Positions 8,361 through 53,296 of a stretch of DNA of 64,000 nt are shown piece by piece (positions within the stretch are counted from its first letter, which is position 1; each line of letters begins with the position of its first letter). Source of the stretch: an uncultured Alphaproteobacteria bacterium (GTDB lineage Bacteria > Pseudomonadota > Alphaproteobacteria > RF32 > CAG-239); assembly GCA_944391715.1 (NCBI GenBank), contig CALXUP010000001.1, forward strand, positions 100,676 to 164,675. The letters are read 5' to 3'. The notes under the pieces were generated by a model. The model was not told the origin of the DNA. It was given only the letters and a program-made list of their open reading frames with translations, and searched no databases. Position numbers and translations under genes: made by a program.

Positions 8361-9467
8361 ATGAACCCGCAGTCTATTCTTGGAAGATATCTGACCAAAC
8401 AGATTATTTACAATTTTCTTGCCGTTTTGCTGATGGTAATCGGAATTGTTATGCTGTTTGAAGTCGTTGAACTGTTGCGCCGGGCTTCCGGCCGGGACGA
8501 TGCGTCTTTCGGCCTGATTATGGAGATGGCTTTTACCAAACTGCCGAAAACCGTGGAAATGGTTTTTCCGTTTGTGATGATGATTGCGGCCATGATTACG
8601 TTTTGGAAACTCAGCAAAAGTAATGAATTTGTGATTATCCGGAGTGCGGGCGTGTCTATCTGGGGTTTTCTGGCGCCGGTTCTTTTGGCAACGTTTTTGG
8701 TCGGGGTGGTCAATGTTACGGTGGTTAATCCGATTTCTGCCCGGATGAATGAATTGTACGAGACGCTGAATTATCGTTTTAAAACACGTAATCCGAAAGC
8801 TGTTCTTTTTTCTGAAAAAGGGTTGTGGCTGCGGGAGGCAATCAGCGCCGATAAGTTTCTTTATCTGCAGGCAAAATCCGTCCGGCAGGAACAAGATACA
8901 TTATTTTTGCGCGGCGTAACGATTTTGGAGATGAGCAGGGAATCGCAGAATTTGCGCCGGATTGAGGCTTATGCCGCCAATTTGAAGGATGATGTGTTTG
9001 AACTGATTAACGTTAAAATTTATGAGCCCGGAAAGCCAACCGTGTCGCAAGACAGGCTTATGTATAAAACAACCTTGACAATAGAAAGGATAAAAGAAAA
9101 TTTTGTTGAGCCGGAATCTATCTCTTTTTGGGATTTGCCGGATACAATCCATTTTTATGAGATGTCGGGCTTTTCGGCGCAAAAACACCGACTGCGTTAT
9201 TTGTCCCTGCTGGCCTCGCCTTTTCTGCTTTGTTCCATGGTTTTGGTGGCGGCGGTTTTTGCCTTGCGGCCGAATAACCGGCGCGGCGGTGTGATGTATC
9301 TGATTGTCGGCGGGCTTTCTACCGGTTTTATCGTCTATTTTATGTCGCAAGTAATTTATGCTTTCGGAATCAATAATATTATCCCCGGTTTTTTGGCGGT
9401 TTGGACGCCGGCGCTGATTGTGATGATGATTAGCGTGTCGGTTCTCCTCCATCTCGAGGACGGGTAA
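8361..9467 (+). CDS. LptF/LptG-family LPS export permease, the second paralog
   Basis: 368 aa with the same YjgP/YjgQ architecture as 1951..3096 (N-terminal TM bundle, periplasmic domain, C-terminal TMs). Its stop codon is abutted by a MITE-like repeat. Confidence 0.85.
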   Translation: MNPQSILGRYLTKQIIYNFLAVLLMVIGIVMLFEVVELLRRASGRDDASFGLIMEMAFTKLPKTVEMVFPFVMMIAAMITFWKLSKSNEFVIIRSAGVSIWGFLAPVLLATFLVGVVNVTVVNPISARMNELYETLNYRFKTRNPKAVLFSEKGLWLREAISADKFLYLQAKSVRQEQDTLFLRGVTILEMSRESQNLRRIEAYAANLKDDVFELINVKIYEPGKPTVSQDRLMYKTTLTIERIKENFVEPESISFWDLPDTIHFYEMSGFSAQKHRLRYLSLLASPFLLCSMVLVAAVFALRPNNRRGGVMYLIVGGLSTGFIVYFMSQVIYAFGINNIIPGFLAVWTPALIVMMISVSVLLHLEDG

Positions 9468-9698
9468 AAACTGCGCAATACGGACGCCTAATACAGAAAA
9501 GGAAAATCCGGCTAAGTTACGTACGTCTATGTACGCGCCTGTCGCCGGATTTTCCTTTTCTTATTATCCGTCTTAGGTATCTAGGCGCGCTGCGGTTGCT
9601 AACGCTTTCCTAGCTTGCCAAGATGTTCCAAAGAGCTTGCAGACAAAAACAACCGGAGCAGCGGTTGTTTTTACTTAGCGCTTCTATCGCAGTTTTTA
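9465..9698. mobile_element. Complete MITE-like palindromic element, long form (R1+R2 modules, ~234 bp), bounded by the TIRs TAAAAACTGCG / CGCAGTTTTTA. Its first TAA is the lptF-like stop codon.
   Basis: Near-identical to the copy at 17832..18064. The 11-bp terminal inverted repeats are read directly. Internal hairpins sit at 9497-9558 and 9646-9673. Confidence 0.8.
9646..9673. terminator. Bidirectional rho-independent terminator-like hairpin carried inside the repeat (aaaaacaaccg-gagcag-cggttgttttt)
   Basis: 11-bp perfect stem and 6-nt loop, with A-run and T-run flanks giving U-tracts on both strands. The same hairpin recurs at ~9849-9876 and ~18017-18044. Confidence 0.6.
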
Positions 9699-10040
9699 CA
9701 GCGGCTTGAAGAGACGTTTGTTATGGAAAGTTTAAAGCTAACCTGTCGCTAAAATTCTTTTTTCTTATTATCTGACTTAGGCATCTAGGCGCGCTGCGGT
9801 TGCTAACGCTTTCCTTGCTTGCCAAGATGTTACAAAGAGCTTGCAGACAAAAACAACCGGAGCAGCGGTTGTTTTTGCTTAGCGCTTCTATCGCGTTTTT
9901 TACAGCGGCTTGAAAGGAGATTTAGTATGGAAATTTTTTAGGTGGCTAAGTTACGTACGTCTATACGCGCCTGTCGCCTTAAAGTTTTTTTCTTATTACC
10001 AGTCTCATTTTCTTTGTTTTTTACAGTGGCTTGAAGGAAG
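9699..10040. repeat. Degenerate tandem partial copies of the same element (R1 3' half, a second R2 module, then fragments of R1/R2), filling the convergent intergenic space.
   Basis: Recognisable blocks ttaggcatctaggcgcgctgcggttgctaacgc... and ggctaagttacgtacgtctatacgcgcctgtcgcc are shared with the other loci. Confidence 0.75.
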
Positions 10041-10044
10041 GTCG

Positions 10045-11412
10045 TTAACTTTCCAAAATGTTTAAGCTCTGGCTGGTTTTGGCGATATCGGTGGTTATTT
10101 TACGGGTTTCTTCAATATTATCAGCGTTTTCAAAGATATAGAGTGCATCGTGAAAATATTCCAAAGCTTCTTCCAGCAATGCTTTGTCTCCGGCGTTTTT
10201 GCCCAGGCGGTAATAGATTTCGCCGATGTGTTCCTGGCTTTTGGCCCATTCCATCGGTGCCCGCCGTTCGGTTATGACTTTTTGCTGGTTTTTATAGCTG
10301 GCAATGGCAAGTTCCGAGATTTCCTCGCTTTTGGTAAAGTTGCCGAGAAGGCCGAGCATATAGCCCAATTCGCCTTGGATTTGCGCCCAGAATTCCGGAA
10401 ACAAGGCAAGCGTATAAATTTTTTCCGCTTCCCGCAGTTGAAAAACGGCATCGCGCAAAGCCTGAATGTCTTCTTTATACAGCCAGTAGCTTAAAAACAA
10501 ATGGGATAATTTATAAGATATATAGCCGTAATCATACGGGTAATTATATTTGCTCAAATATCTTTGCGCCTGGCGGTAATAGTTAATGGCTTCCCGGAAA
10601 TGACGAGCCGATTGTTTGGGGATGTATTTGGTCGAGCAGTCATAGAGCTGTCCGAGGTGGTTGTAGATACAGCCGAGATGGATTGGTGCGGTTATCAAAT
10701 CCTGATGTTTCAGCGCCGTGTCGAAAAGGTTTTTTACGATTTTGAAGTCTTTGCCCTGGCCGCGGTCAAAACAATAACTGAGGTAAATGATACCCAGAAA
10801 GTTCATTATATAAGGCATATATTCGATGGAGAGGTTTTTGGCGGAATCGTCCTTTGAAAGAGAATTGATTATCCTTTTCAGCAAATATCTTTTTTGGATT
10901 TTCTTTTCTTTTGAAAAAGTATTGAGCGAGCTGACAACGGCGCCGTAAATCAAATTGCCGACGGCGGGCGGAATTTTGTTTCCGGAGGATAATAAATCAG
11001 CCGGGATGTATAAACTGTCCAAGAGTGAAACAAAAGCGCAGTCTTCGTTTTCATATTGTTTTTCGGTCTGAAAATTCAGACGGATCCTGCTGCCTTCGCG
11101 ATATCCCCAAATTAAAACGTCGGCCTGTGTCTTGTCCAAAATGGTTTGTCCCCGGTCAATCAGATCAAACAGTGTCCGGCTTTCCAGATTGAGAAAGGTT
11201 TTGGAGAAAGGTTCATCAAAATATGAGACTTCCAAACCGTCTTTGCCGCTTAACAGGCGTGCGATGACTTCACCGCTGTTGCTTTCTATATTTTCGGAAA
11301 ACTCAACGACGACGACCTTGAATTTTATCAAATCTATGGCATTGACCGCCAAATTCAGATTATCGGGGCGGGTATGAAAAATTTTATGAAAAAAATCGGT
11401 CAGCCGCATCAA
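10045..11412 (-). CDS. Hypothetical 455-aa protein with a TPR-like C-terminal half and an unrecognised N-terminal domain
   Basis: Long ORF with good coding texture and an ATGA start/stop overlap with the upstream gene. The C-terminal region is rich in helical repeats with Y/L/A periodicity (YYRQAQRYL, YYRLGKN). Confidence 0.6.
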   Translation of the reverse strand: MMRLTDFFHKIFHTRPDNLNLAVNAIDLIKFKVVVVEFSENIESNSGEVIARLLSGKDGLEVSYFDEPFSKTFLNLESRTLFDLIDRGQTILDKTQADVLIWGYREGSRIRLNFQTEKQYENEDCAFVSLLDSLYIPADLLSSGNKIPPAVGNLIYGAVVSSLNTFSKEKKIQKRYLLKRIINSLSKDDSAKNLSIEYMPYIMNFLGIIYLSYCFDRGQGKDFKIVKNLFDTALKHQDLITAPIHLGCIYNHLGQLYDCSTKYIPKQSARHFREAINYYRQAQRYLSKYNYPYDYGYISYKLSHLFLSYWLYKEDIQALRDAVFQLREAEKIYTLALFPEFWAQIQGELGYMLGLLGNFTKSEEISELAIASYKNQQKVITERRAPMEWAKSQEHIGEIYYRLGKNAGDKALLEEALEYFHDALYIFENADNIEETRKITTDIAKTSQSLNILES

Positions 11413-15356: not shown

Positions 15357-17834
15357 ATGACTGACAGATATAATGGAAAAGGCTCATTTGAGGAATGGGC
15401 AAAAGAATGGGAAACGGAAGACCGCTATAATTTTAAAAAAATTGAAAAAAAGTGGCAGAGCATCTGGGATGAAAACAAGGCTTATAAGGTAGAAATCGAC
15501 AAGAATAAGGAAAAATATTATGTTCTGGTCGAATTTCCTTATCCGTCCGGCGCCGGTCTGCATGTGGGACATCCTCGCTCTTATACGGCATTGGATGTGG
15601 TAGCGCGCAAAAAGAGAATGCAGGGTTTTAACGTTTTGTATCCGATGGGCTTTGATGCTTTCGGTCTGCCGGCGGAGAATTATGCGATTAAAACCGGCGT
15701 TCATCCGGCAGTTTCCACTAAAGCCAATATTGAAAACTTTACCCGCCAGCTGAAGTCAATCGGATTCAGCTTTGACTGGGACAGAGCTTTTAATACCTGT
15801 GATCCGGAATATTATAAGTGGACGCAGTGGATGTTTATCAAACTTTTTGAAAAAGGTTTGGCATATAAAGACAAAATGGCAATCAACTGGTGCCCGTCCT
15901 GCAAAGTCGGTCTGGCTAATGAAGAGGTTGTCAACGGCTGCTGCGAACGTTGCGGTGCGCAGGTTGTTCGTAAGGACAAAGAGCAGTGGATGGTGGCAAT
16001 TACCAAATATGCCGACCGTTTGATTAACGATTTGGATGATTTGGATTTTATTGACCGGGTTAAAGCACAGCAGATTAACTGGATCGGGCGTTCGGAAGGT
16101 GCCGAGCTGGATTTTGATTTGGTTGACGTTCACGGTAATTCTTTGGACGGAAGAAAGCTTAAAGTCTTTACAACGCGTCCGGATACGGCCTTTGGCGTGA
16201 CTTATATGGTTATGGCGCCGGAGCATGCCTTTGTATCCGAGCTGATGCCGCAATTTGAAAATCCGGAAGAAATCAGAGCTTATGTGGCGGAAACGGCCAA
16301 AAAGTCTGATTTGCAGAGAACGATGGATGACAGCAAAACAGGTGTTGAACTGAAAGGGATTAAAGCAAAGAATCCGTTTAACGGAACGTTGATTCCGGTA
16401 TTTATTTCCGATTATGTGCTGACCGGTTACGGTACCGGCGCAATTATGGCGGTGCCGGCTCATGACCAACGCGACTATGATTTTGCCAAGGCTTTTAATC
16501 TGCCGATTATTCAGGTTCTGGCCGGCGGCGATATTGCCGAAAAGGCTTGGGAAGAAGACGGTGCACATATTAATTCCGGCTTTATGGACGGCATGAATAA
16601 AGATGAGGCGATGAAGGCTGCAATTGCTTTTGCCGAAAAGAACGGTTTTGGCAAATCGAAGGTTAATTTCAAACTGCGTGACTGGGTATTTTCACGTCAG
16701 CGTTATTGGGGCGAGCCTATTCCGATGGTCTATTGCGAGCATTGCGGCTGGCAGCCGGTTCCGGAAGACCAGCTCCCTCTGACTTTGCCGGAAGTTCCAG
16801 ATTATCTGCCGAATGATAACGGCGACTCTCCTTTGGCAAAGGCCACCGACTGGGTTAATACAACTTGTCCGAAATGCGGAGCTCCGGCACGCAGAGAGAC
16901 CGATGTTATGCCAAACTGGGCGGGTTCGTCATGGTATTTTCTGCGTTATTGTGATCCGCACAATGACAAAGAGTTTGCCTCTAAAGAAGCGTTGGATTAC
17001 TGGATGAATGTCGATTGGTATAACGGTGGTATGGAGCATACGACTTTACACCTGCTTTATTCGCGTTTTTGGCATAAGTTTTTGTATGACTGCGGTTATG
17101 TGCCGACCAAAGAACCCTATCAGCGCCGGACGTCGCATGGTATGATTTTGGCTGAGAACGGCGAGAAAATGTCAAAATCGCGCGGTAATGTGATTAATCC
17201 CGATGATATTGTTAATAATTACGGGGCAGACAGCTTCCGTCTGTATGAGATGTTTATCGGGCCGTTTGACCAGGTGGCAATGTGGTCCGATGACAGTCTG
17301 AACGGTGTATACCGTTTTGTCGGCAAGGTGTATAACCTGTTTAAGAAGGTTAATAAAAGTGCCAAGCCCTCGGCTAAAGATATTCAGATGATGCACAAGA
17401 CCATTCTTGAAGTTACCGAAAGAATTGATCAGATGAAGTTTAACACGGCGGTTTCTTCTTTGATGACCTATGTAAACCATTTGTCTTCTTTGGATGAGAT
17501 TGCTCCGGAGCTTTATGAAAATCTGCTGCTTTTGATGTGTCCGTTTACGCCGCATCTGGCAGAGGAAATGTGGGCAAGAATGGGGCATACGTCATTGATT
17601 ATTACGGAGCCCTGGCCGAAAGGCGATGCCAAACTGGCTGAGGAAAATACCGTTACTTATGCCGTTCAGATTTGCGGCAAAATGCGCGGTACAATCGATT
17701 TGCCGAAAGACGCACCGCGCGAAGAGGTTGAAAAAGCCGCATTATCGCTTGAAAATGTTAAGCGGCAGTTGGAAGGCAAAGAGGTTAAAAAGGTTATTGT
17801 GGTGCCTAATAAAATCATCAACCTTGTTGCGTAA
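15357..17834 (+). CDS. leuS: Leucyl-tRNA synthetase
   Basis: HIGH motif (HVGHPRSYT), KMSKS motif (KMSKSRGN), class I editing-domain context and leuS-lptE-holA synteny. Confidence 0.95.
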   Translation: MTDRYNGKGSFEEWAKEWETEDRYNFKKIEKKWQSIWDENKAYKVEIDKNKEKYYVLVEFPYPSGAGLHVGHPRSYTALDVVARKKRMQGFNVLYPMGFDAFGLPAENYAIKTGVHPAVSTKANIENFTRQLKSIGFSFDWDRAFNTCDPEYYKWTQWMFIKLFEKGLAYKDKMAINWCPSCKVGLANEEVVNGCCERCGAQVVRKDKEQWMVAITKYADRLINDLDDLDFIDRVKAQQINWIGRSEGAELDFDLVDVHGNSLDGRKLKVFTTRPDTAFGVTYMVMAPEHAFVSELMPQFENPEEIRAYVAETAKKSDLQRTMDDSKTGVELKGIKAKNPFNGTLIPVFISDYVLTGYGTGAIMAVPAHDQRDYDFAKAFNLPIIQVLAGGDIAEKAWEEDGAHINSGFMDGMNKDEAMKAAIAFAEKNGFGKSKVNFKLRDWVFSRQRYWGEPIPMVYCEHCGWQPVPEDQLPLTLPEVPDYLPNDNGDSPLAKATDWVNTTCPKCGAPARRETDVMPNWAGSSWYFLRYCDPHNDKEFASKEALDYWMNVDWYNGGMEHTTLHLLYSRFWHKFLYDCGYVPTKEPYQRRTSHGMILAENGEKMSKSRGNVINPDDIVNNYGADSFRLYEMFIGPFDQVAMWSDDSLNGVYRFVGKVYNLFKKVNKSAKPSAKDIQMMHKTILEVTERIDQMKFNTAVSSLMTYVNHLSSLDEIAPELYENLLLLMCPFTPHLAEEMWARMGHTSLIITEPWPKGDAKLAEENTVTYAVQICGKMRGTIDLPKDAPREEVEKAALSLENVKRQLEGKEVKKVIVVPNKIINLVA

Positions 17835-18064
17835 AAACTGCGCAATACGGACGCCTAATACAGAAAAGGAAAATCCGGCTAAGTTACGTACGTCTATGTA
17901 CGCGCCTGTCGCCGGATTTTCCTTTTCTTATTATCCGTCTTAGGTATCTAGGCGCGCTGCGGTTGCTAACGCTTTCCTAGCTTGCCAAGATGTTCCAAAG
18001 AGCTTGCAGACAAAAACAACCGGAGTAGCGGTTGTTTTTGCTTAGCGCTTCTATCGCAGTTTTT
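17832..18064. mobile_element. Complete MITE-like palindromic element, long form. Its first TAA is the leuS stop codon. The right TIR variant is CGCAGTTTTTG.
   Basis: About 98% identical over ~230 bp to 9465..9698. The same TIR and internal hairpins are read directly. Confidence 0.8.
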
Positions 18065-18195
18065 GCAGCGGCCTGAAGGGGCTTTGTTATTGCAGATGTT
18101 TTTCTTATTTGTGGGCTTTTCCGTAAAAAATTATGGACTTGTGGCGGAAATGCGGTTAAATTTGCTGTAAGTTAATTTTTTATAAAAGGACGAAT

Positions 18196-22990: not shown

Positions 22991-22992
22991 AA

Positions 22993-23031
22993 AACAGGAT
23001 TGCGGTTTTTTACCGGAATCCTGTTTTTTTT
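22993..23031 (+). terminator. Rho-independent terminator after the methyltransferase gene
   Basis: Hairpin caggattgcgg/ccggaatcctg followed by TTTTTTTT. Confidence 0.6.
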
Positions 23032-23316
23032 GTATCAGTCATCATATCTGTTAACATTGCGGTATTTGTATATATCATACCACATTATCAGATATACAAA
23101 CACTGTAAATACGACCCAAATTAATCCTGTAATTTGCCAGCCGTTTAATGAAGCTAAAAAGTCGACCATAGTATTTTTTTATTTAATGGTTAATGAATTC
23201 AAAAAATTTATAAAAAAATGTATGCGAATTTTTGTTTCATAAAAGCAATATAATTAAAGTTAATAATAAATTTTGTGCTTTCCAATATATGCCAGAACGT
23301 CTTTGTAGTCAACAGA

Positions 23317-27686: not shown

Positions 27687-27733
27687 ATCAGTCTCTTGGG
27701 ATTTTTTTATCCGGTGGGAGACTGATTTTTTTA
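27687..27733. terminator. Bidirectional terminator-like hairpin between pip and the BI-1 gene
   Basis: 9-bp stem atcagtctc/gagactgat with a long loop, followed by TTTTTTT. Convergent gene ends flank it. Confidence 0.4.
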
Positions 27734-27758
27734 TCTTCATTAAAATGCTTGATGCAAA

Positions 27759-34277: not shown

Positions 34278-34321
34278 ATAAAAAAAAGCCGGGAGTTTTT
34301 TACTTTCCGGCCTTTTTATTT

Positions 34322-36285: not shown

Positions 36286-36300
36286 ATATATTATTTTCTT

Positions 36301-36330
36301 AAAAAGCTCCCTTTTGCAAGGGAGCTTTTA
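36301..36330. terminator. Bidirectional rho-independent terminator between convergent genes
   Basis: agctccc-ttttgcaa-gggagct hairpin flanked by an A-run and a T-run. Confidence 0.7.
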
Positions 36331-36332
36331 TG

Positions 36333-44424: not shown

Positions 44425-44427
44425 AAT

Positions 44428-44458
44428 AAAATCCCGTTGAAACGGGATCTTATTTTTA
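44428..44458. terminator. Bidirectional terminator hairpin between convergent genes
   Basis: atcccgtt/aacgggat stem followed by CTTATTTTT. Confidence 0.55.
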
Positions 44459-44460
44459 AT

Positions 44461-44956: not shown

Positions 44957-47368
44957 ATGTTTGGTTTGAAAAATTTTAAGACTTTCGCCGGTGCCCTGAT
45001 GCTGGCGCTGGTCGGGGTGGTTCAAGGGGCGTATGCTTCAGAAATCGACCTCAAAATTCCGTCTTTGGACGTGGAATACAATATCTTCGGTTATTCCGTC
45101 CTGGGATCGCAGATTTTGTTTTATGGTATGAGCATCTGTGTTCTCGGTATGCTTTTTGGTTTGTATGAATTTCTTAAAATCAAAAAAATGCCGGCTCACG
45201 AAGCCATGCTGAAAGTATCGGAACTGATTTATGCGACCTGCAAAACCTATATGAAACAACAAGCTAAACTGCTTTTGCTTCTGGAATTGTTTATTGCGGT
45301 TTGTATTTTCTACTATTTCTATTATCTCAACGCAACGCCGATGCCGAAAGTGCTGACAATTCTTTCCTGGTCGGTTCTCGGTATTCTCGGGTCTTATTCG
45401 GTGGCCTGGTTCGGTATGCGCATTAACAATTATGCCAATGCCCGCACAGCCTTTTCTTCTTTGGAAGCCAAGGCTTATAAGGTTATGAGCCTGCCGCTGC
45501 GTTCCGGCATGTCTATCGGTGTTTTGCTGATTTGCGTTGAGCTGATTATGATGATTGCCATTCTTTTGTTTGTGCCGAAAGAAAGCGCAGGCGCCTGCTT
45601 TATCGGATTTGCCATCGGTGAATCTTTAGGTGCGGCGGCTTTGCGTATTTGCGGCGGTATCTTTACCAAGATTGCCGATATCGGTGCGGATTTGATGAAG
45701 ATTATTTTCAAAATCGGTGAAGATGATGCCCGCAATCCGGGTGTGATTGCCGACTGTACCGGTGATAATGCCGGCGACTCCGTCGGTCCGACCGCCGATG
45801 GTTTTGAGACTTACGGCGTTACCGGTGTGGCTCTTATCAGCTTTATCGTTCTGGGTGCCGGTATGATGTATGCCCCGAACGGTGATTTGACCCTGATGCC
45901 GAACGGTGTTGATTTTCAGGCTCGTCTGATTGTCTGGATTTTTGCAATGAGACTCCTGATGATTATTACTTCGCTGGTTTCTTACTGGCTTAATAACAAA
46001 GTTTCTTCCGCCCTTTACGGCAAAAAGGAATTTTTTGATTTTGAAAAACCGTTGACCAGCCTGATTTGGTTTACTTCCATTATCTCGATTGCCGTTACTT
46101 TCGGCGTTTCTTATGTGATGATCGGTGATCTCAGCCCGGATTTGTGGTGGAGACTTTCTCTGATTATCAGCTGTGGTACTTTGGCTGCGGCTTTGATTCC
46201 GGAATTTACCAAAATCTTTACTTCGTCAAAATCCCAACATGTTCAGGAAATTGTCAAATCCAGTCGTGAGGCCGGTGCTTCTCTGAACATTATTTCCGGT
46301 ATCGTTGCCGGTAATTTCTCGGCTTTTTGGCAGGGTATAGTTATGGTCGGCCTGATGGTGGTTGCGTTCTTTACCGCCCAATCCGGTTTGGACAGCTTTA
46401 TGGTTTATCCGACAGTCTTTGCTTTCGGTCTGGTAGCTTTCGGTATGCTCGGCATGGGGCCGGTTACGATTGCCGTAGACAGCTATGGCCCGGTAACCGA
46501 TAATGCCCAGTCTGTTTTTGAGCTTTCTCAGATTGAAGGTATTAAGAACGTTGACAAAGATATTGAGAAAAAATACGGCTTTAAACCGAATTTTGAGCAG
46601 GGCAAACATTTGCTCGAGGCCAATGACGGCGCCGGAAATACCTTTAAAGCAACGGCTAAGCCGGTGCTTATCGGTACGGCCGTTATCGGTGCTACAACGA
46701 TGATTTTCTCAATTATCCTGTTGCTTAACCTGAAACTGAATCTGCTGGATCCGCAAGTCCTGTTCGGCCTTATTCTCGGCGGTGCGGTGATTTACTGGTT
46801 CTCCGGCGCTTCAATGCAGGCGGTTTCGACCGGGGCTTATCGTGCAGTTGATTTTATTAAAAAACATATCAAACTGAGCGGTAAGAAAGCGGCTTCGCAG
46901 AAAGACTCTCAGGAAGTGGTCAAGATTTGCACAATTTATGCGCAAAAGGGTATGTTTAATATCTTTATCGTAATCTTTTCCTTTACGATTGCTTTTGCCT
47001 GCTTTGATGCAAATCTGTTTGCAAGCTATCTGATTTCAATTGCCGTATTTGGTTTGTTCCAAGCGCTGTTTATGGCAAATGCCGGCGGTGCATGGGATAA
47101 CGCCAAGAAAGTGGTTGAAGTTGATTTGAACGAGAAAGGTACGCCGCTGCATGACGCTACCGTTGTCGGCGATACGGTCGGTGATCCGTTCAAAGATACG
47201 TCTTCCGTTGCTCTCAACCCGATTATCAAATTTACAACCTTGTTTGGTTTGTTGGCGGTTGAGATGGCCGTAGCGGCTCCGAGATGTGTATCTCTGGGGC
47301 TGGGTATTTTCTTCTTATTGTTGGGGTTGGTATTTGTATATCGGTCTTTCTACAAGATGAAAATATAA
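44957..47368 (+). CDS. hppA: Membrane-bound proton-translocating pyrophosphatase (H+-PPase)
   Basis: About 800 aa and 15+ TM. The conserved GDNAGD and DxxGDxxGD motif region (CTGDNAGDSVGPTADGFETY) is present, and an AAGGAAAA RBS precedes the ATG at 44957. Confidence 0.9.
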   Translation: MFGLKNFKTFAGALMLALVGVVQGAYASEIDLKIPSLDVEYNIFGYSVLGSQILFYGMSICVLGMLFGLYEFLKIKKMPAHEAMLKVSELIYATCKTYMKQQAKLLLLLELFIAVCIFYYFYYLNATPMPKVLTILSWSVLGILGSYSVAWFGMRINNYANARTAFSSLEAKAYKVMSLPLRSGMSIGVLLICVELIMMIAILLFVPKESAGACFIGFAIGESLGAAALRICGGIFTKIADIGADLMKIIFKIGEDDARNPGVIADCTGDNAGDSVGPTADGFETYGVTGVALISFIVLGAGMMYAPNGDLTLMPNGVDFQARLIVWIFAMRLLMIITSLVSYWLNNKVSSALYGKKEFFDFEKPLTSLIWFTSIISIAVTFGVSYVMIGDLSPDLWWRLSLIISCGTLAAALIPEFTKIFTSSKSQHVQEIVKSSREAGASLNIISGIVAGNFSAFWQGIVMVGLMVVAFFTAQSGLDSFMVYPTVFAFGLVAFGMLGMGPVTIAVDSYGPVTDNAQSVFELSQIEGIKNVDKDIEKKYGFKPNFEQGKHLLEANDGAGNTFKATAKPVLIGTAVIGATTMIFSIILLLNLKLNLLDPQVLFGLILGGAVIYWFSGASMQAVSTGAYRAVDFIKKHIKLSGKKAASQKDSQEVVKICTIYAQKGMFNIFIVIFSFTIAFACFDANLFASYLISIAVFGLFQALFMANAGGAWDNAKKVVEVDLNEKGTPLHDATVVGDTVGDPFKDTSSVALNPIIKFTTLFGLLAVEMAVAAPRCVSLGLGIFFLLLGLVFVYRSFYKMKI

Positions 47369-47492
47369 AAACTGCGCAATACGGACGCCTAATACAGAAA
47401 AGGGAAATCCGGCTAAGTTACGTACGTTTATGTACGCGCCTGTTGCCGGATTTTCCTTTTCTTATTATCCGTCGCGTCTATCGCAGTTTTTA
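47366..47492. mobile_element. Complete MITE-like element, short form (R1 module joined directly to the right TIR, 127 bp). Its first TAA is the hppA stop codon.
   Basis: TIRs TAAAAACTGCG / CGCAGTTTTTA. The body is ~95% identical to the R1 module at 9465 and 17832. Confidence 0.8.
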
Positions 47493-47760
47493 CAGGGGTT
47501 TGAAAGGGCGTTTAGTATAGAAAGTTCTTAAGGCTAATCATGTACCACTACGTACACTCCTGTCGCTTTAAAGGTTTTTTCTTATTACTAGCCTCATTCT
47601 CCGTGATTTTTGGTAAAAACAGCGCTCTGTGGTCACCTAATACAGAAAAAAGAATTTTAGCTAAGTCATGTATGCTTTTATACACTCCTGTCGCTAAAAT
47701 TCTTTTTTCGTATTATCCGTCTTAGGTATTTAGGCGCGCTGCAATATGTTCCGAAGATAC
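47493..47760. repeat. Degenerate and partial copies of the same family, including a second left arm TAAAAACAGCGCTCTGTGGTCACCTAATACAG at 47614 and a truncated R2 5' end
   Basis: Shared blocks cctaatacagaaaa, cctgtcgc...cttattatccgtcttaggtat. Confidence 0.7.
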
Positions 47761-47775
47761 GGGGTTAATTATTAT

Positions 47776-48288
47776 TTATTTTGTCTGATGCTGATATTCG
47801 TTTAAGGCGTTGCGGAGAATATTGACAATCTCTTTGGGATCATCTTGAAAAATAAAGGTAGGAATTCGAATATGGTTTCCGAATAACGGCTTGTCTATTT
47901 TTTTATAAAATTGTTGGAATTTTGATAGTCTTTGTAAAATATTACTGAGGTCATAAACATTAATTTCTATCATTTTATTATTTTTATAGGTTATCAGTTC
48001 TATATTTATAATTTCGGAATAGTGGATAAAGCCATATTTGCAAAGGTTATCGATAATTCCTTGCGGGGTTATGCTTAAGATAGATTTTTTTTGATTTCCG
48101 AACTGTAAAAATTTTAAGCACTGATATGAGGAAAATAAACAAATAACGCCACAGAAAATGATATCTATGTTTTTTTTAGGATTTCCCGCGTAAAGAAAAA
48201 GAAGGATGCCACAAGAAAGAGCTGCTAAAAATGTTATAAAACTGATAGTGTAACAACGGAATTTAGAAACTTTGAATTCTCTCGTCAT
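47776..48288 (-). CDS. Hypothetical small membrane protein (170 aa; two N-terminal TM helices plus a soluble domain, possibly a bacterial PH-like domain)
   Basis: ORF with an AT-rich composition and two hydrophobic helices. No confident family. Confidence 0.45.
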   Translation of the reverse strand: MTREFKVSKFRCYTISFITFLAALSCGILLFLYAGNPKKNIDIIFCGVICLFSSYQCLKFLQFGNQKKSILSITPQGIIDNLCKYGFIHYSEIINIELITYKNNKMIEINVYDLSNILQRLSKFQQFYKKIDKPLFGNHIRIPTFIFQDDPKEIVNILRNALNEYQHQTK

Positions 48289-52906: not shown

Positions 52907-52917
52907 AACTTGCAAAA

Positions 52918-52996
52918 GGCCGGTCATGCTTGTTTCTTTTCTCCTCGTGTACCTTTTTTGTACACGTCGTCGAAAAAAAACGGCGCAGCACCGGCC
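52918..52996. repeat. R3 palindromic module copy a (~79 bp; outer stem GGCCGGT/ACCGGCC, inner stem CGTGTAC/GTACACG)
   Basis: Directly repeated ~85% at 53149..53228; nested inverted repeats read directly. Confidence 0.7.
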
Positions 52997-53010
52997 TTTA
53001 TCAAGTTTTT

Positions 53011-53136
53011 TAAAACCGCGCTCTGTGGTCACCTAATACAGAAAAAGGAAATCCGGCTAAGTTATGTACGTTTATGTACGCGCCTGTCGCCGGATTTCCT
53101 TTTTCTTATTATCCGTCGCGTCTATCGCGGTTTTTA
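53011..53136. mobile_element. Complete MITE-like element, short form, with covarying TIR variant TAAAACCGCG / CGCGGTTTTTA
   Basis: Body ~90% identical to 47366..47492. Both TIR arms carry a compensatory T->C and A->G change relative to the other copies. Confidence 0.8.
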
Positions 53137-53148
53137 CAGCGGCTAAAA

Positions 53149-53228
53149 GGGCTGGTCATACTTGTTCCTTTTCTCCTCGTGTATCTGTTTGGTACACGTT
53201 GTTGGAAAGTAACTGCGTAGCACCAGCC
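53149..53228. repeat. R3 palindromic module copy b, followed by a degenerate left-arm fragment (aaaactgtgttttgtggttacctagtatat)
   Basis: Sequence similarity to 52918..52996. Confidence 0.7.
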
Positions 53229-53261
53229 TTTTATAAAACTGTGTTTTGTGGTTACCTAGTA

Positions 53262-53296
53262 TATAAAAAACTCCGGAAGTGTTTTCCGGAGTTTTA
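53262..53296 (-). terminator. Rho-independent terminator downstream of grpE
   Basis: actccgga/tccggagt hairpin with a U-tract on the minus-strand transcript. Confidence 0.6.

Follow-up and report, generated by a model that had tools for sequence, protein, structure and literature searches.

A stretch of 64,000 nucleotides from an uncultured Alphaproteobacteria bacterium (contig CALXUP010000001.1; referred to here in its full length as the window) carries two kinds of non-coding palindromic repeat, R1 and R2, at four intergenic loci designated A–D (Table 1). Comparison of the four loci with the whole window using BLAST places every repeat copy within them and none elsewhere. All four are at gene 3′ ends, as a sequence-only reading of this DNA had pointed out, and three lie between convergent genes: lptG and a gene encoding a 455-residue protein (locus A), hppA and a 170-codon gene (locus C), and fabG and grpE (locus D). 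The fourth (locus B) lies between the co-directional genes leuS and lptE. The gene upstream of locus A had been called lptF, but its product is LptG, which scores 246.9 bits against a cut-off of 240 and only 85 bits with the LptF model.

Organization of the R1 and R2 repeats

The repeats are 130–235 nt long. R1 is a palindromic backbone of ~130 nt with 11-bp terminal inverted repeats (TAAAAACTGCG at 9465–9475 and CGCAGTTTTTA at 9688–9698 in the first copy, with TA at both ends) and a 78-nt hairpin. The short-form unit (e.g. 47366–47495) consists of the left terminal repeat, ~13 nt, the 78-nt hairpin unit, ~14 nt and the right terminal repeat, and a conserved 13-nt extension (CAGCGGCTTGAAG) follows the right terminal repeat in all copies. 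The R1 hairpin had been described as a 16-bp stem; the hairpin is real and stronger than this, with 18–23 bp paired around a 31-nt loop that contains a 5-bp stem of its own, and predicted folding free energies (dG) of −37 and −42 kcal/mol (z = −7.5 and −8.0).

R2 is a module of ~110 nt (CTTAGG…CTTAGCGCT), the 3′ end of which is the R2 hairpin. In the long form of the unit R2 lies within the right arm of R1, following either CCGTC or CTGAC, and a complete long form (9465–9720) folds as a single structure of −96 to −100 kcal/mol with a z score of about −6.3 on both strands. An alternative R2 site is within the R1 loop, after GTAC or TATAC (L010, L021, L025 and L045–L049; L numbers denote sequences other than the window). 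R2 is also found in non-R1 sequence beside a different small hairpin on two metagenome contigs, both of them short and both returned by a metagenome scan with the R2 pattern, as well as 3′ of R1 units in L015. Because it is nested at two positions in R1 and is also found outside it, R2 is an independent module. Its occurrence outside R1 beside another small hairpin suggests that these genomes contain further small modules. Units are joined head-to-tail in arrays, where internal left ends abut the right end of the preceding unit; in the locus A unit nearest to the convergent gene the arms do not pair (by eye). Copies at the unlinked positions 9465–9711 and 17832–18078 are 98% identical. Across species R2 is 84–99% identical, and R1 arms at the same sites are 70–97% identical.

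The R2 hairpin is located at 9645–9672 on the forward strand and has the sequence AAAAACAACCG-GAGCAG-CGGTTGTTTTT, i.e. A5-CAACCG-GAGCAG-CGGTTG-T5. It had been placed one base away (9646–9673) and given an 11-bp stem flanked by A5 and T5. The 6-nt loop agrees with that description, but the 11 bp already include the A5 and T5 tracts, and the G+C-bearing core of the stem is 6 bp long (CAACCG/CGGTTG) with four G-C pairs. The core has a dG of −7.7 kcal/mol on the forward strand and −6.2 on the reverse strand; in a 47-nt context the corresponding values are −14.8 and −15.4 (z = −2.6 and −3.1). With up to three mismatches allowed, the 28-mer is present three times in the window (9645, 9849 and 18012, the last with one loop mismatch), and 0.00 matches are expected from dinucleotide-preserving shuffles of the window. 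The hairpin is present at only two of the four loci: at locus C, R2 is cut short after 21 nt, and locus D lacks R2 altogether.

In 20 complete distinct copies of R2 only one change affects the stem and A/T runs (in L025), and free variation is seen in the 3′ half of the loop (GAGCAG, GAGTAG, GAGCTG, GAGTAA, GAGCAA and GAGCTT), and none of the 31 predicted pairs in the whole module has a compensatory change. C>T or G>A changes relative to GAGCAG account for many of these variants (GAGTAG, GAGCAA and GAGTAA), beside an invariant stem, which would fit deamination of an exposed loop of single-stranded DNA as well as relaxed constraint.

Table 1. Repeats and associated features in the window and in related sequences. 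Positions are those of the window unless preceded by an L number.
Feature	Position	Strand	Remarks
Locus A array, three tandem units	9465–10035	+	lptG stop TAA (9465–9467) is the first three bases of the array
Locus A, far side	10045–10047		Stop of the convergent gene for the 455-residue protein
R1 hairpin unit of A1, 78 nt	9489–9566	+	Arms TAATACAGAAAAGGAAAATCCGGC / GCCGGATTTTCCTTTTCTTATTA, 31-nt loop
R2 module, copy 1	9572–9682	+	Nested in R1 right arm after CCGTC
Right terminal inverted repeat CGCAGTTTTTA with extension CAGCGGCTTGAAG	9688–9711	+	Pairs with TAAAAACTGCG at 9465–9475
R2 module, copy 2	9776–9886	+	Hairpin 9849–9876
Locus B, one long-form unit	17832–18078	+	From leuS stop TAA (17832–17834), upstream of lptE (18196)
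Locus B, R1 hairpin	17856–17933		
Locus B, R2 module	17939–18049		
Locus B, R2 hairpin	18012–18039		
Locus C array, three units	47366–47742	+	From hppA stop TAA (47366–47368)
Locus C, R1 hairpins	47390–47467, 47638–47715		Array ends in the first 21 nt of R2
Locus C, far side	47776–47778		Stop of the convergent 170-codon gene
Locus D, one short-form R1 unit	53010–53144	+	Hairpin 53034–53111; between fabG and grpE
pal86, copy 1	52914–52999	.	86-nt palindromic repeat unrelated to R1/R2; between fabG stop and R1 unit
pal86, copy 2	53146–53231	.	83% identical to copy 1
grpE classical terminator	53266–53296	-	Outside any repeat; A6-CTCCGGAA-loop-TTCCGGAG-T4
Native two-way terminators	22991–23040, 27690–27745, 34278–34321, 36300–36332, 44425–44460, 53266–53296		
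Promoter-like junctions	9899–9928, 47489–47518, 53133–53162		Direction away from upstream gene; consensus match only, 9/12
R2 outside any R1	L067:499–608, L068:1262–1371, L015:130–290		Followed by small hairpin CCCCTCTT…AAGAGGGG
R2 loops compared	9656–9661, 9860–9865, 18023–18028		Together with copies in L007–L036

Placement, orientation and variation of the arrays

A degenerate pattern of the R1 left arm, applied to one genome per species, gave 32 matches at 30 loci in six species represented by metagenome-assembled genomes (MAGs), all of them uncultured (Alpha)proteobacteria. According to the record labels, the samples from which these MAGs derive include human gut, Hadza, mouse and water-deer rectum.

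The orientation of the repeats follows the base composition of the surrounding DNA. At 30/30 fetched loci the top strand of R1 is the one that is G-rich over the surrounding 8 kb, including loci with most of the coding sequence on the other strand, and the same is true of all four loci in the window, where GC skew is positive throughout (1–64000), giving a total of 34/34. We take the G-rich strand to be the leading-strand sequence and hence the lagging-strand template, on the basis of general knowledge of replication and not of a mapped origin. In spite of the positive skew, the window genes are evenly split (30 on the forward and 31 on the reverse strand, with 19 and 23 TAA stops, respectively), so that gene-strand bias is weak in the window. 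An element serving gene ends would thus be expected on reverse-strand genes about half of the time, and this is never so. Counted over about 11 distinct anchor genes, the orientation has P = 5e-4 with a 50% baseline and P = 0.017 with a 69% baseline.

The first unit of almost every array opens with TAAAAAC, and the upstream gene uses the TAA of this sequence as its stop codon. Between stop codon and hairpin foot there are 22–25 nt in 23 of 27 distinct contexts and 28–30 nt in the other four; in these four a native stop is located 2–6 nt upstream of the element's own TAA, and they look like intermediates. At least 11 different genes are anchored in this way, including lptG, leuS, hppA, fabG, fliE and a kdsB-like gene. 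LptG and LeuS are neither longer nor shorter at the C-terminus than in a relative whose sites are empty (see below), and therefore the native stop was retained and no coding sequence was lost. A TAA is present at the left junction of every array-first unit, whether it is regarded as part of the target or of the element, and comparison of filled and empty sites reveals no simple target duplication.

The spacers were classified on a home-made gene map, scored by codon usage, that covers the window and the 30 loci; the map omits the 170-codon gene, which leaves the class of its spacer unaffected. The 30 repeat-bearing spacers comprise 19 convergent, 11 co-directional and no divergent ones (about 7 convergent and 8 co-directional independent spacers after orthology is taken into account), and the 220 other spacers comprise 31, 144 and 45, respectively. 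Fisher tests give P = 2e-8 for the convergent enrichment of repeats and P = 0.004 for their absence from divergent spacers.

Array length differs between strains. Metagenome contigs encoding exactly the LptG, LptE or 170-residue protein of the window were used as the strain set, and among strains with identical LptG the spacer following lptG is 145, 262 or 577 nt long; the leuS–lptE spacer ranges from 361 to 653 nt, and that following hppA is 279, 407 or 536 nt. These spacers contain one to four units, of differing types, and the boundaries with the flanking genes are constant in every strain. In four of six strains the lptG spacer holds a single chimeric unit with a fold no better than that of shuffled sequence (z = +0.97 and +0.77). 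At leuS there is at least one intact R1 hairpin in every strain and species examined.

A related species with the same gene order (LptG 83% and LptE 65% identical) has no repeat at two of the sites, and the comparison indicates that the arrays are insertions relative to the related species. At its empty site between lptG and a gene for a 453-residue protein (L037:3605–3614) the stops are 4 nt apart (GGT TAA TTCT TTA) with no terminator, and therefore the array replaced nothing there; with stops so close, each transcript must either end inside the opposite gene or need a factor such as Rho. The empty leuS–lptE site (L053) has a canonical terminator beginning 13 nt past the stop, with a AGTCTCCGTA/TACGGAGACT stem (dG −15.8) followed by TTTTGTTTTT, and similarity to the window resumes just past this terminator, in the lptE upstream region. 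The terminator is absent from the window, from all eight strain variants and from two further species (L019 and L025), in all of which the space from the TAA onward is filled by a repeat array. As judged from this comparison, the array has taken the place of an ancestral canonical terminator at leuS; that it supplies termination there is plausible, and the leuS comparison is the best evidence for it. No empty hppA site was found, since arrays are present in all the homologues retrieved, the most distant at 47% identity, and LptG homologues of 66–74% identity were ruled out as empty sites because the downstream gene differs.

Several other features are associated with the arrays. Arrays of any length between leuS and lptE all end in GGCCTGAAGGGGCTTTGTTATTGCAGATGTTTTTCTTATTTGTGGGC (window 18070–18110 and L045–L051), which looks like a unit with its centre deleted, and this end contains a small GGCC/GGGC hairpin followed by TTTGTTATT that was flagged as terminator-like. 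A promoter-like motif, TTTACA-18 nt-TAGTAT (or CATACT), is present where the right terminal repeat meets the next unit. The repeat pal86 at locus D (copy 1, dG −41.9, z = −7.3) recurs in several related MAGs at up to 95% identity (L024:963–1047 and L028:7175–7261). In the window pal86 comes after the fabG stop, which reads TAAAACTTGC; in L036 the same fabG stop leads directly into R1, and pal86 appears to have been inserted into the left terminus of R1 in the window. The gene for the 455-residue protein facing lptG (10045–11412, reverse strand) has no NCBIfam family match and is conserved beside a glycosyltransferase-4 gene; its homologue in L037 has only a faint TPR match.

Conservation of the hairpins and resemblance to terminators

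Conservation of the R1 fold was examined in 38 distinct 78-nt units. Standard pairs occupy 98.3% of the pair cells, 87.9% when the 3′ partners are shuffled and 47–55% when they are slid by 1–3 columns. Eleven R1 pairs have changes on both sides (e.g. GGAAAATCCGGC/GCCGGATTTTCC, AGAATTTTAGC/GCTAAAATTCT, CTTTAAGGC/GCCTTAAAG and GGAAATTCTAGC/GCTAGAATTTCC). The covariation score of 0.332, compared with 0.131 in shuffles, is reached by 0/500 shuffles, a control that overstates significance because the sequences are related; the slid controls and the count of distinct arm types are independent of this kinship. R1 pairing is kept through compensatory changes. A few R1 units are chimeric, with arms of different types, and are obvious products of recombination within the loop.

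The remaining mismatches are asymmetric between the strands. In non-chimeric R1 units the transition-type single mismatches, read on the top strand, are G·T in 11 cells (8 distinct events) and A·C in none (binomial P = 0.004 for 8 versus 0). The R1 fold therefore appears to be protected on one strand only, and the apparent lack of protection on the opposite strand, where the same mismatches are A·C, argues against a two-way function.

Native terminators provide a useful reference set for the repeats. Most of the short convergent spacers of the window (21–88 nt), together with the longer one at 22991–23316, contain typical two-way terminators composed of an A-tract, a 7–13-bp stem, a short loop and a T-tract, with the A-tract sometimes placed right after the stop codon. 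Intrinsic terminators usually have a loop of 3–8 nt and a G+C-rich stem of about 5–14 bp. R2 has a stem and loop of this kind together with A5/T5 mirror symmetry; R1, with its 31-nt loop and interrupted stem, does not. The cores of seven native terminators (six in the window and that of leuS in L053) have a dG of −8.8 to −20.5 kcal/mol, and the R2 core, although similarly arranged, is less stable than any of them; the R1 stem has a dG of −15 to −31. There are 6 U residues in the first 8 nt past both the R2 core and the R1 stem, on both strands. These energies were computed directly in place of a simple terminator scanner, the counts of which were no higher than in shuffled sequence and which missed R2 because extension of the stem consumes the T run. 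Both hairpins had been proposed to have bidirectional terminator form; each has a stem and a U-tract on both strands, although the R1 fold appears to be guarded on only one of them.

Origin and possible roles of the repeats

We consider the hairpins to be part of a family of REP/BIME-like, mobile palindromic modules that spread as single-stranded DNA at the replication fork and for which any terminator effect is secondary, with a probability of roughly 0.55. Element orientation, which follows the replication strand at 34/34 loci, points to DNA-level mobility as the main reason for the hairpins, and although RNA and single-stranded DNA cannot be told apart by the G·T signature by itself, the lock to the replication strand favours DNA. 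R1 and R2 would spread and be rearranged in single-stranded form, on the template of the lagging strand, with a Y1 (HUH) transposase as the probable agent, and the TAA at the left junction would be the target or part of it, with insertion immediately 3′ of such a TAA in the G-rich strand. Where 3′ spacers are as short as in this genome (4–90 nt), purifying selection, together with deletion between A-rich microhomologies, could then leave copies mostly fused to stop codons. The host would thereby acquire a stable hairpin and U-rich tract ~21 nt past the stop of a leading-strand gene, and the array probably terminates or 3′-protects the leading-strand transcript, an effect that would not be the reason for which the hairpins exist.

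Several points weigh against single-stranded mobility. No transposase, of the Y1/HUH or any other type, was found among the ten small open reading frames (ORFs) adjoining the arrays, in ~300 kb around the repeats; the ten ORFs are kdsB-like, pgk, fliE, glmM-like or of no family. Orthology between species affects many of the 34 loci and leaves about 11–15 independent ones. Mismatches restricted to G·T on the sense strand equally fit selection on RNA, the 11-bp terminal inverted repeats bounded by TA fit a classical DDE-type miniature inverted-repeat transposable element (MITE), and the preference for the TAA of stop codons over other TAA sequences is not fully explained by a single-strand model.

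The sequence-only reading had proposed that the element was domesticated as a transcription terminator, an established type of hypothesis applied here to an undescribed repeat family. In its full form the elements are kept as portable bidirectional Rho-independent terminators or 3′ stabilisers, with hairpins conserved for RNA function on both strands. Their terminator-like form on both strands, in a layout shared with the native terminators, their preference for convergent gene pairs and avoidance of divergent spacers, the replaced terminator at leuS with an intact R1 hairpin there in all cases, the compensatory changes in R1 and the invariance of the R2 stem beside a variable loop are all consistent with this. 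Domestication is difficult to reconcile, though, with an orientation locked to the replication strand and the lack of any array anchored on a lagging-strand gene, or with G·T-only mismatches that would leave function on the other strand unprotected. A general or essential terminator role is further argued against by the lptG site, which had no ancestral terminator to be replaced and where four of six strains have an unstructured unit, and by grpE, which keeps its own terminator beside the repeat; in addition, the R2 core is weak relative to native ones and the R1 loop is long. We therefore regard domestication as bidirectional terminators as rather unlikely, and find it plausible that the predicted terminator activity is a side effect, probably a mainly one-directional one.

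Less probable again is that the repeats are classical MITEs, i.e. non-autonomous derivatives of a DDE element (e.g. IS630/Tc1-like, with a TA target) that moved as double-stranded DNA and have no host function, their 3′-end position being due only to purifying selection. The terminal inverted repeats with TA at both extremes, the length of 130–235 nt with no coding capacity, the many copies (at least 32 in six species) and the contrast between filled and empty sites agree with such an origin, and the convergent enrichment of pneumococcal BOX, RUP and IS elements has been interpreted as tolerated insertion (PMC3049150). Nevertheless, there is no clean TA duplication, every copy has the 13-nt extension after its right repeat, the ten ORFs adjoining the arrays include no parent IS, and double-strand transposition predicts neither the 34/34 orientation nor the G·T-only mismatches. 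Doubtful to a similar degree is a mobile element that targets the TAA of stop codons on the lagging-strand template and acts as a 3′-end module, by which the native terminators of leading-strand genes would have been replaced step by step in this clade of compact gut Alphaproteobacteria. Such a module would consist of stop codon, spacer of about 21 nt, hairpin and U-tract, in effect a 'terminator cassette' that is locked to one strand and aimed at stop codons; REP, BOX, ERIC and Correia elements have not been described in these terms.

It is very improbable that R2 is a small RNA gene or cis-regulatory RNA with its own terminator, although this would explain why R2 is more conserved than R1 across species, why it ends in a terminator-like hairpin and why it is found independently of R1. 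Rfam searches of 9400–10100 gave only chance-level matches at E ≤ 5, and the window at gathering thresholds contains one tRNA. None of the 31 predicted pairs covaries, there is no promoter-like site inside or just upstream of R2, the module is truncated or absent at many loci, and some naturally occurring loop variants introduce a TAG or TAA into the 28-codon ORF that runs through it (start ATG at 9623, terminal TGA within GGCTTGAAG), which also rules out an R2-encoded peptide. Two further candidates were rejected. The TAAAAAC…GTTTTTA ends do not fit the RYYYAAC…GTTRRRY core sites of integron attC sites (by eye), which are also excluded by the context of housekeeping genes (lptG, leuS, hppA and fabG) in conserved synteny, and a CRISPR is ruled out by sequence and gene context.

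Among the nearest known counterparts of R1 and R2 are the REP/BIME elements of Enterobacteria and the REPINs of Pseudomonas, which are mobilised by RAYT/TnpA-REP transposases of the Y1 type. Both they and R1/R2 are intergenic palindromes in mosaic tandem arrays with strain-variable copy number, both have strand-specific hairpins compatible with single-strand processing, and roles as mRNA 3′ stabilisers or attenuators have been proposed. Escherichia coli strains differ in BIME copy number per locus, for which a model involving a Y1 transposase was put forward (PMC3333891); REPs mostly occupy convergent and co-directional spacers, no more than 20 bp from the 3′ end of an ORF (PMC3733652). REPs no more than 15 nt from a stop codon are reported to stall ribosomes (PMC12306157), a range outside which the foot of the R1 hairpin falls at ~21 nt past the stop. 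The R1 hairpin of 78 nt is, however, larger than the 20–40 nt of a REP and has no unpaired GTAG/CGTC tag at its foot: the unit starts with TAATACAG, and the CGTC within the flank TCCGTCGCGTC is not an unpaired head as in REPs (PMC3733652). In addition, no RAYT gene was seen in the sampled loci around R1/R2, the arrays are head-to-tail and not alternating inverted pairs as in BIMEs, the left end of R1 is fused exactly to the stop codon, and no description of an absolute replication-strand orientation of REPs was found in the literature examined.

The IS200/IS605 family and its non-autonomous derivatives, the palindrome-associated transposable elements, also resemble R1. In IS200/IS605 elements only the top strand is active, insertion is 3′ of a short target and the lagging-strand template is preferred (PMC5027513). 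One-strand activity, hairpins recognised as single-stranded DNA, a fixed short target and the absence of target duplication would be common features, and the R1 orientation matches the lagging-strand template at 34/34 loci. R1 differs in having one large central hairpin instead of two subterminal ones, terminal inverted repeats, a presumed target of only TAA, no ORF and no tnpA found. In IS608 the spacing from the left junction to the foot of the hairpin is comparable to the about 20 nt of R1.

Other bacterial repeats share individual features. The SPRITE repeats of Streptococcus pneumoniae form a long duplex with a U-rich tract, are strongly enriched near convergent 3′ ends and have been proposed as co-opted terminators, and BOX elements are modular (boxA-boxB(n)-boxC) with a variable number of modules and encode the stop codon of 36 genes (PMC3049150). 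Their host belongs to another phylum and no sequence relationship to R1/R2 is evident; moreover, pneumococcal repeats are only about 61–63% leading-strand, mirroring the coding bias, whereas R1 is 100% despite the even gene split. Correia elements (CREE/NEMIS, Neisseria), the size and inverted repeats of which have been described (PMC3049150), and ERIC elements (Enterobacteria) are likewise imperfect palindromes of 100–250 nt with terminal inverted repeats, and have long and short forms that differ by internal insertions; the sequence-only reading had drawn its comparison with these two families. They are found in other hosts and are of other sequence than R1/R2. Correia and ERIC elements are transcribed together with their neighbouring genes and are reported to affect the ends and stability of transcripts. 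They are found in either orientation, and upstream positions, where they can give rise to promoters, occur as well. We know of no description of stop-codon fusion or strand-locked orientation for either.

Small palindromic repeats are common and poorly understood, and almost nothing is known of them in uncultured gut Alphaproteobacteria. R1/R2 stands out by its clean pattern of exact stop-codon fusion, 34/34 orientation and one-strand mismatches. A practical aspect is that the number and type of array units vary between close strains at the same locus. With filled and empty sites and strain-level array variants available in public metagenomes, the repeats form a natural data set that could be used to test whether REP-like elements without an obvious transposase move as single-stranded DNA at the replication fork, and whether repeats can take over the job of native terminators.

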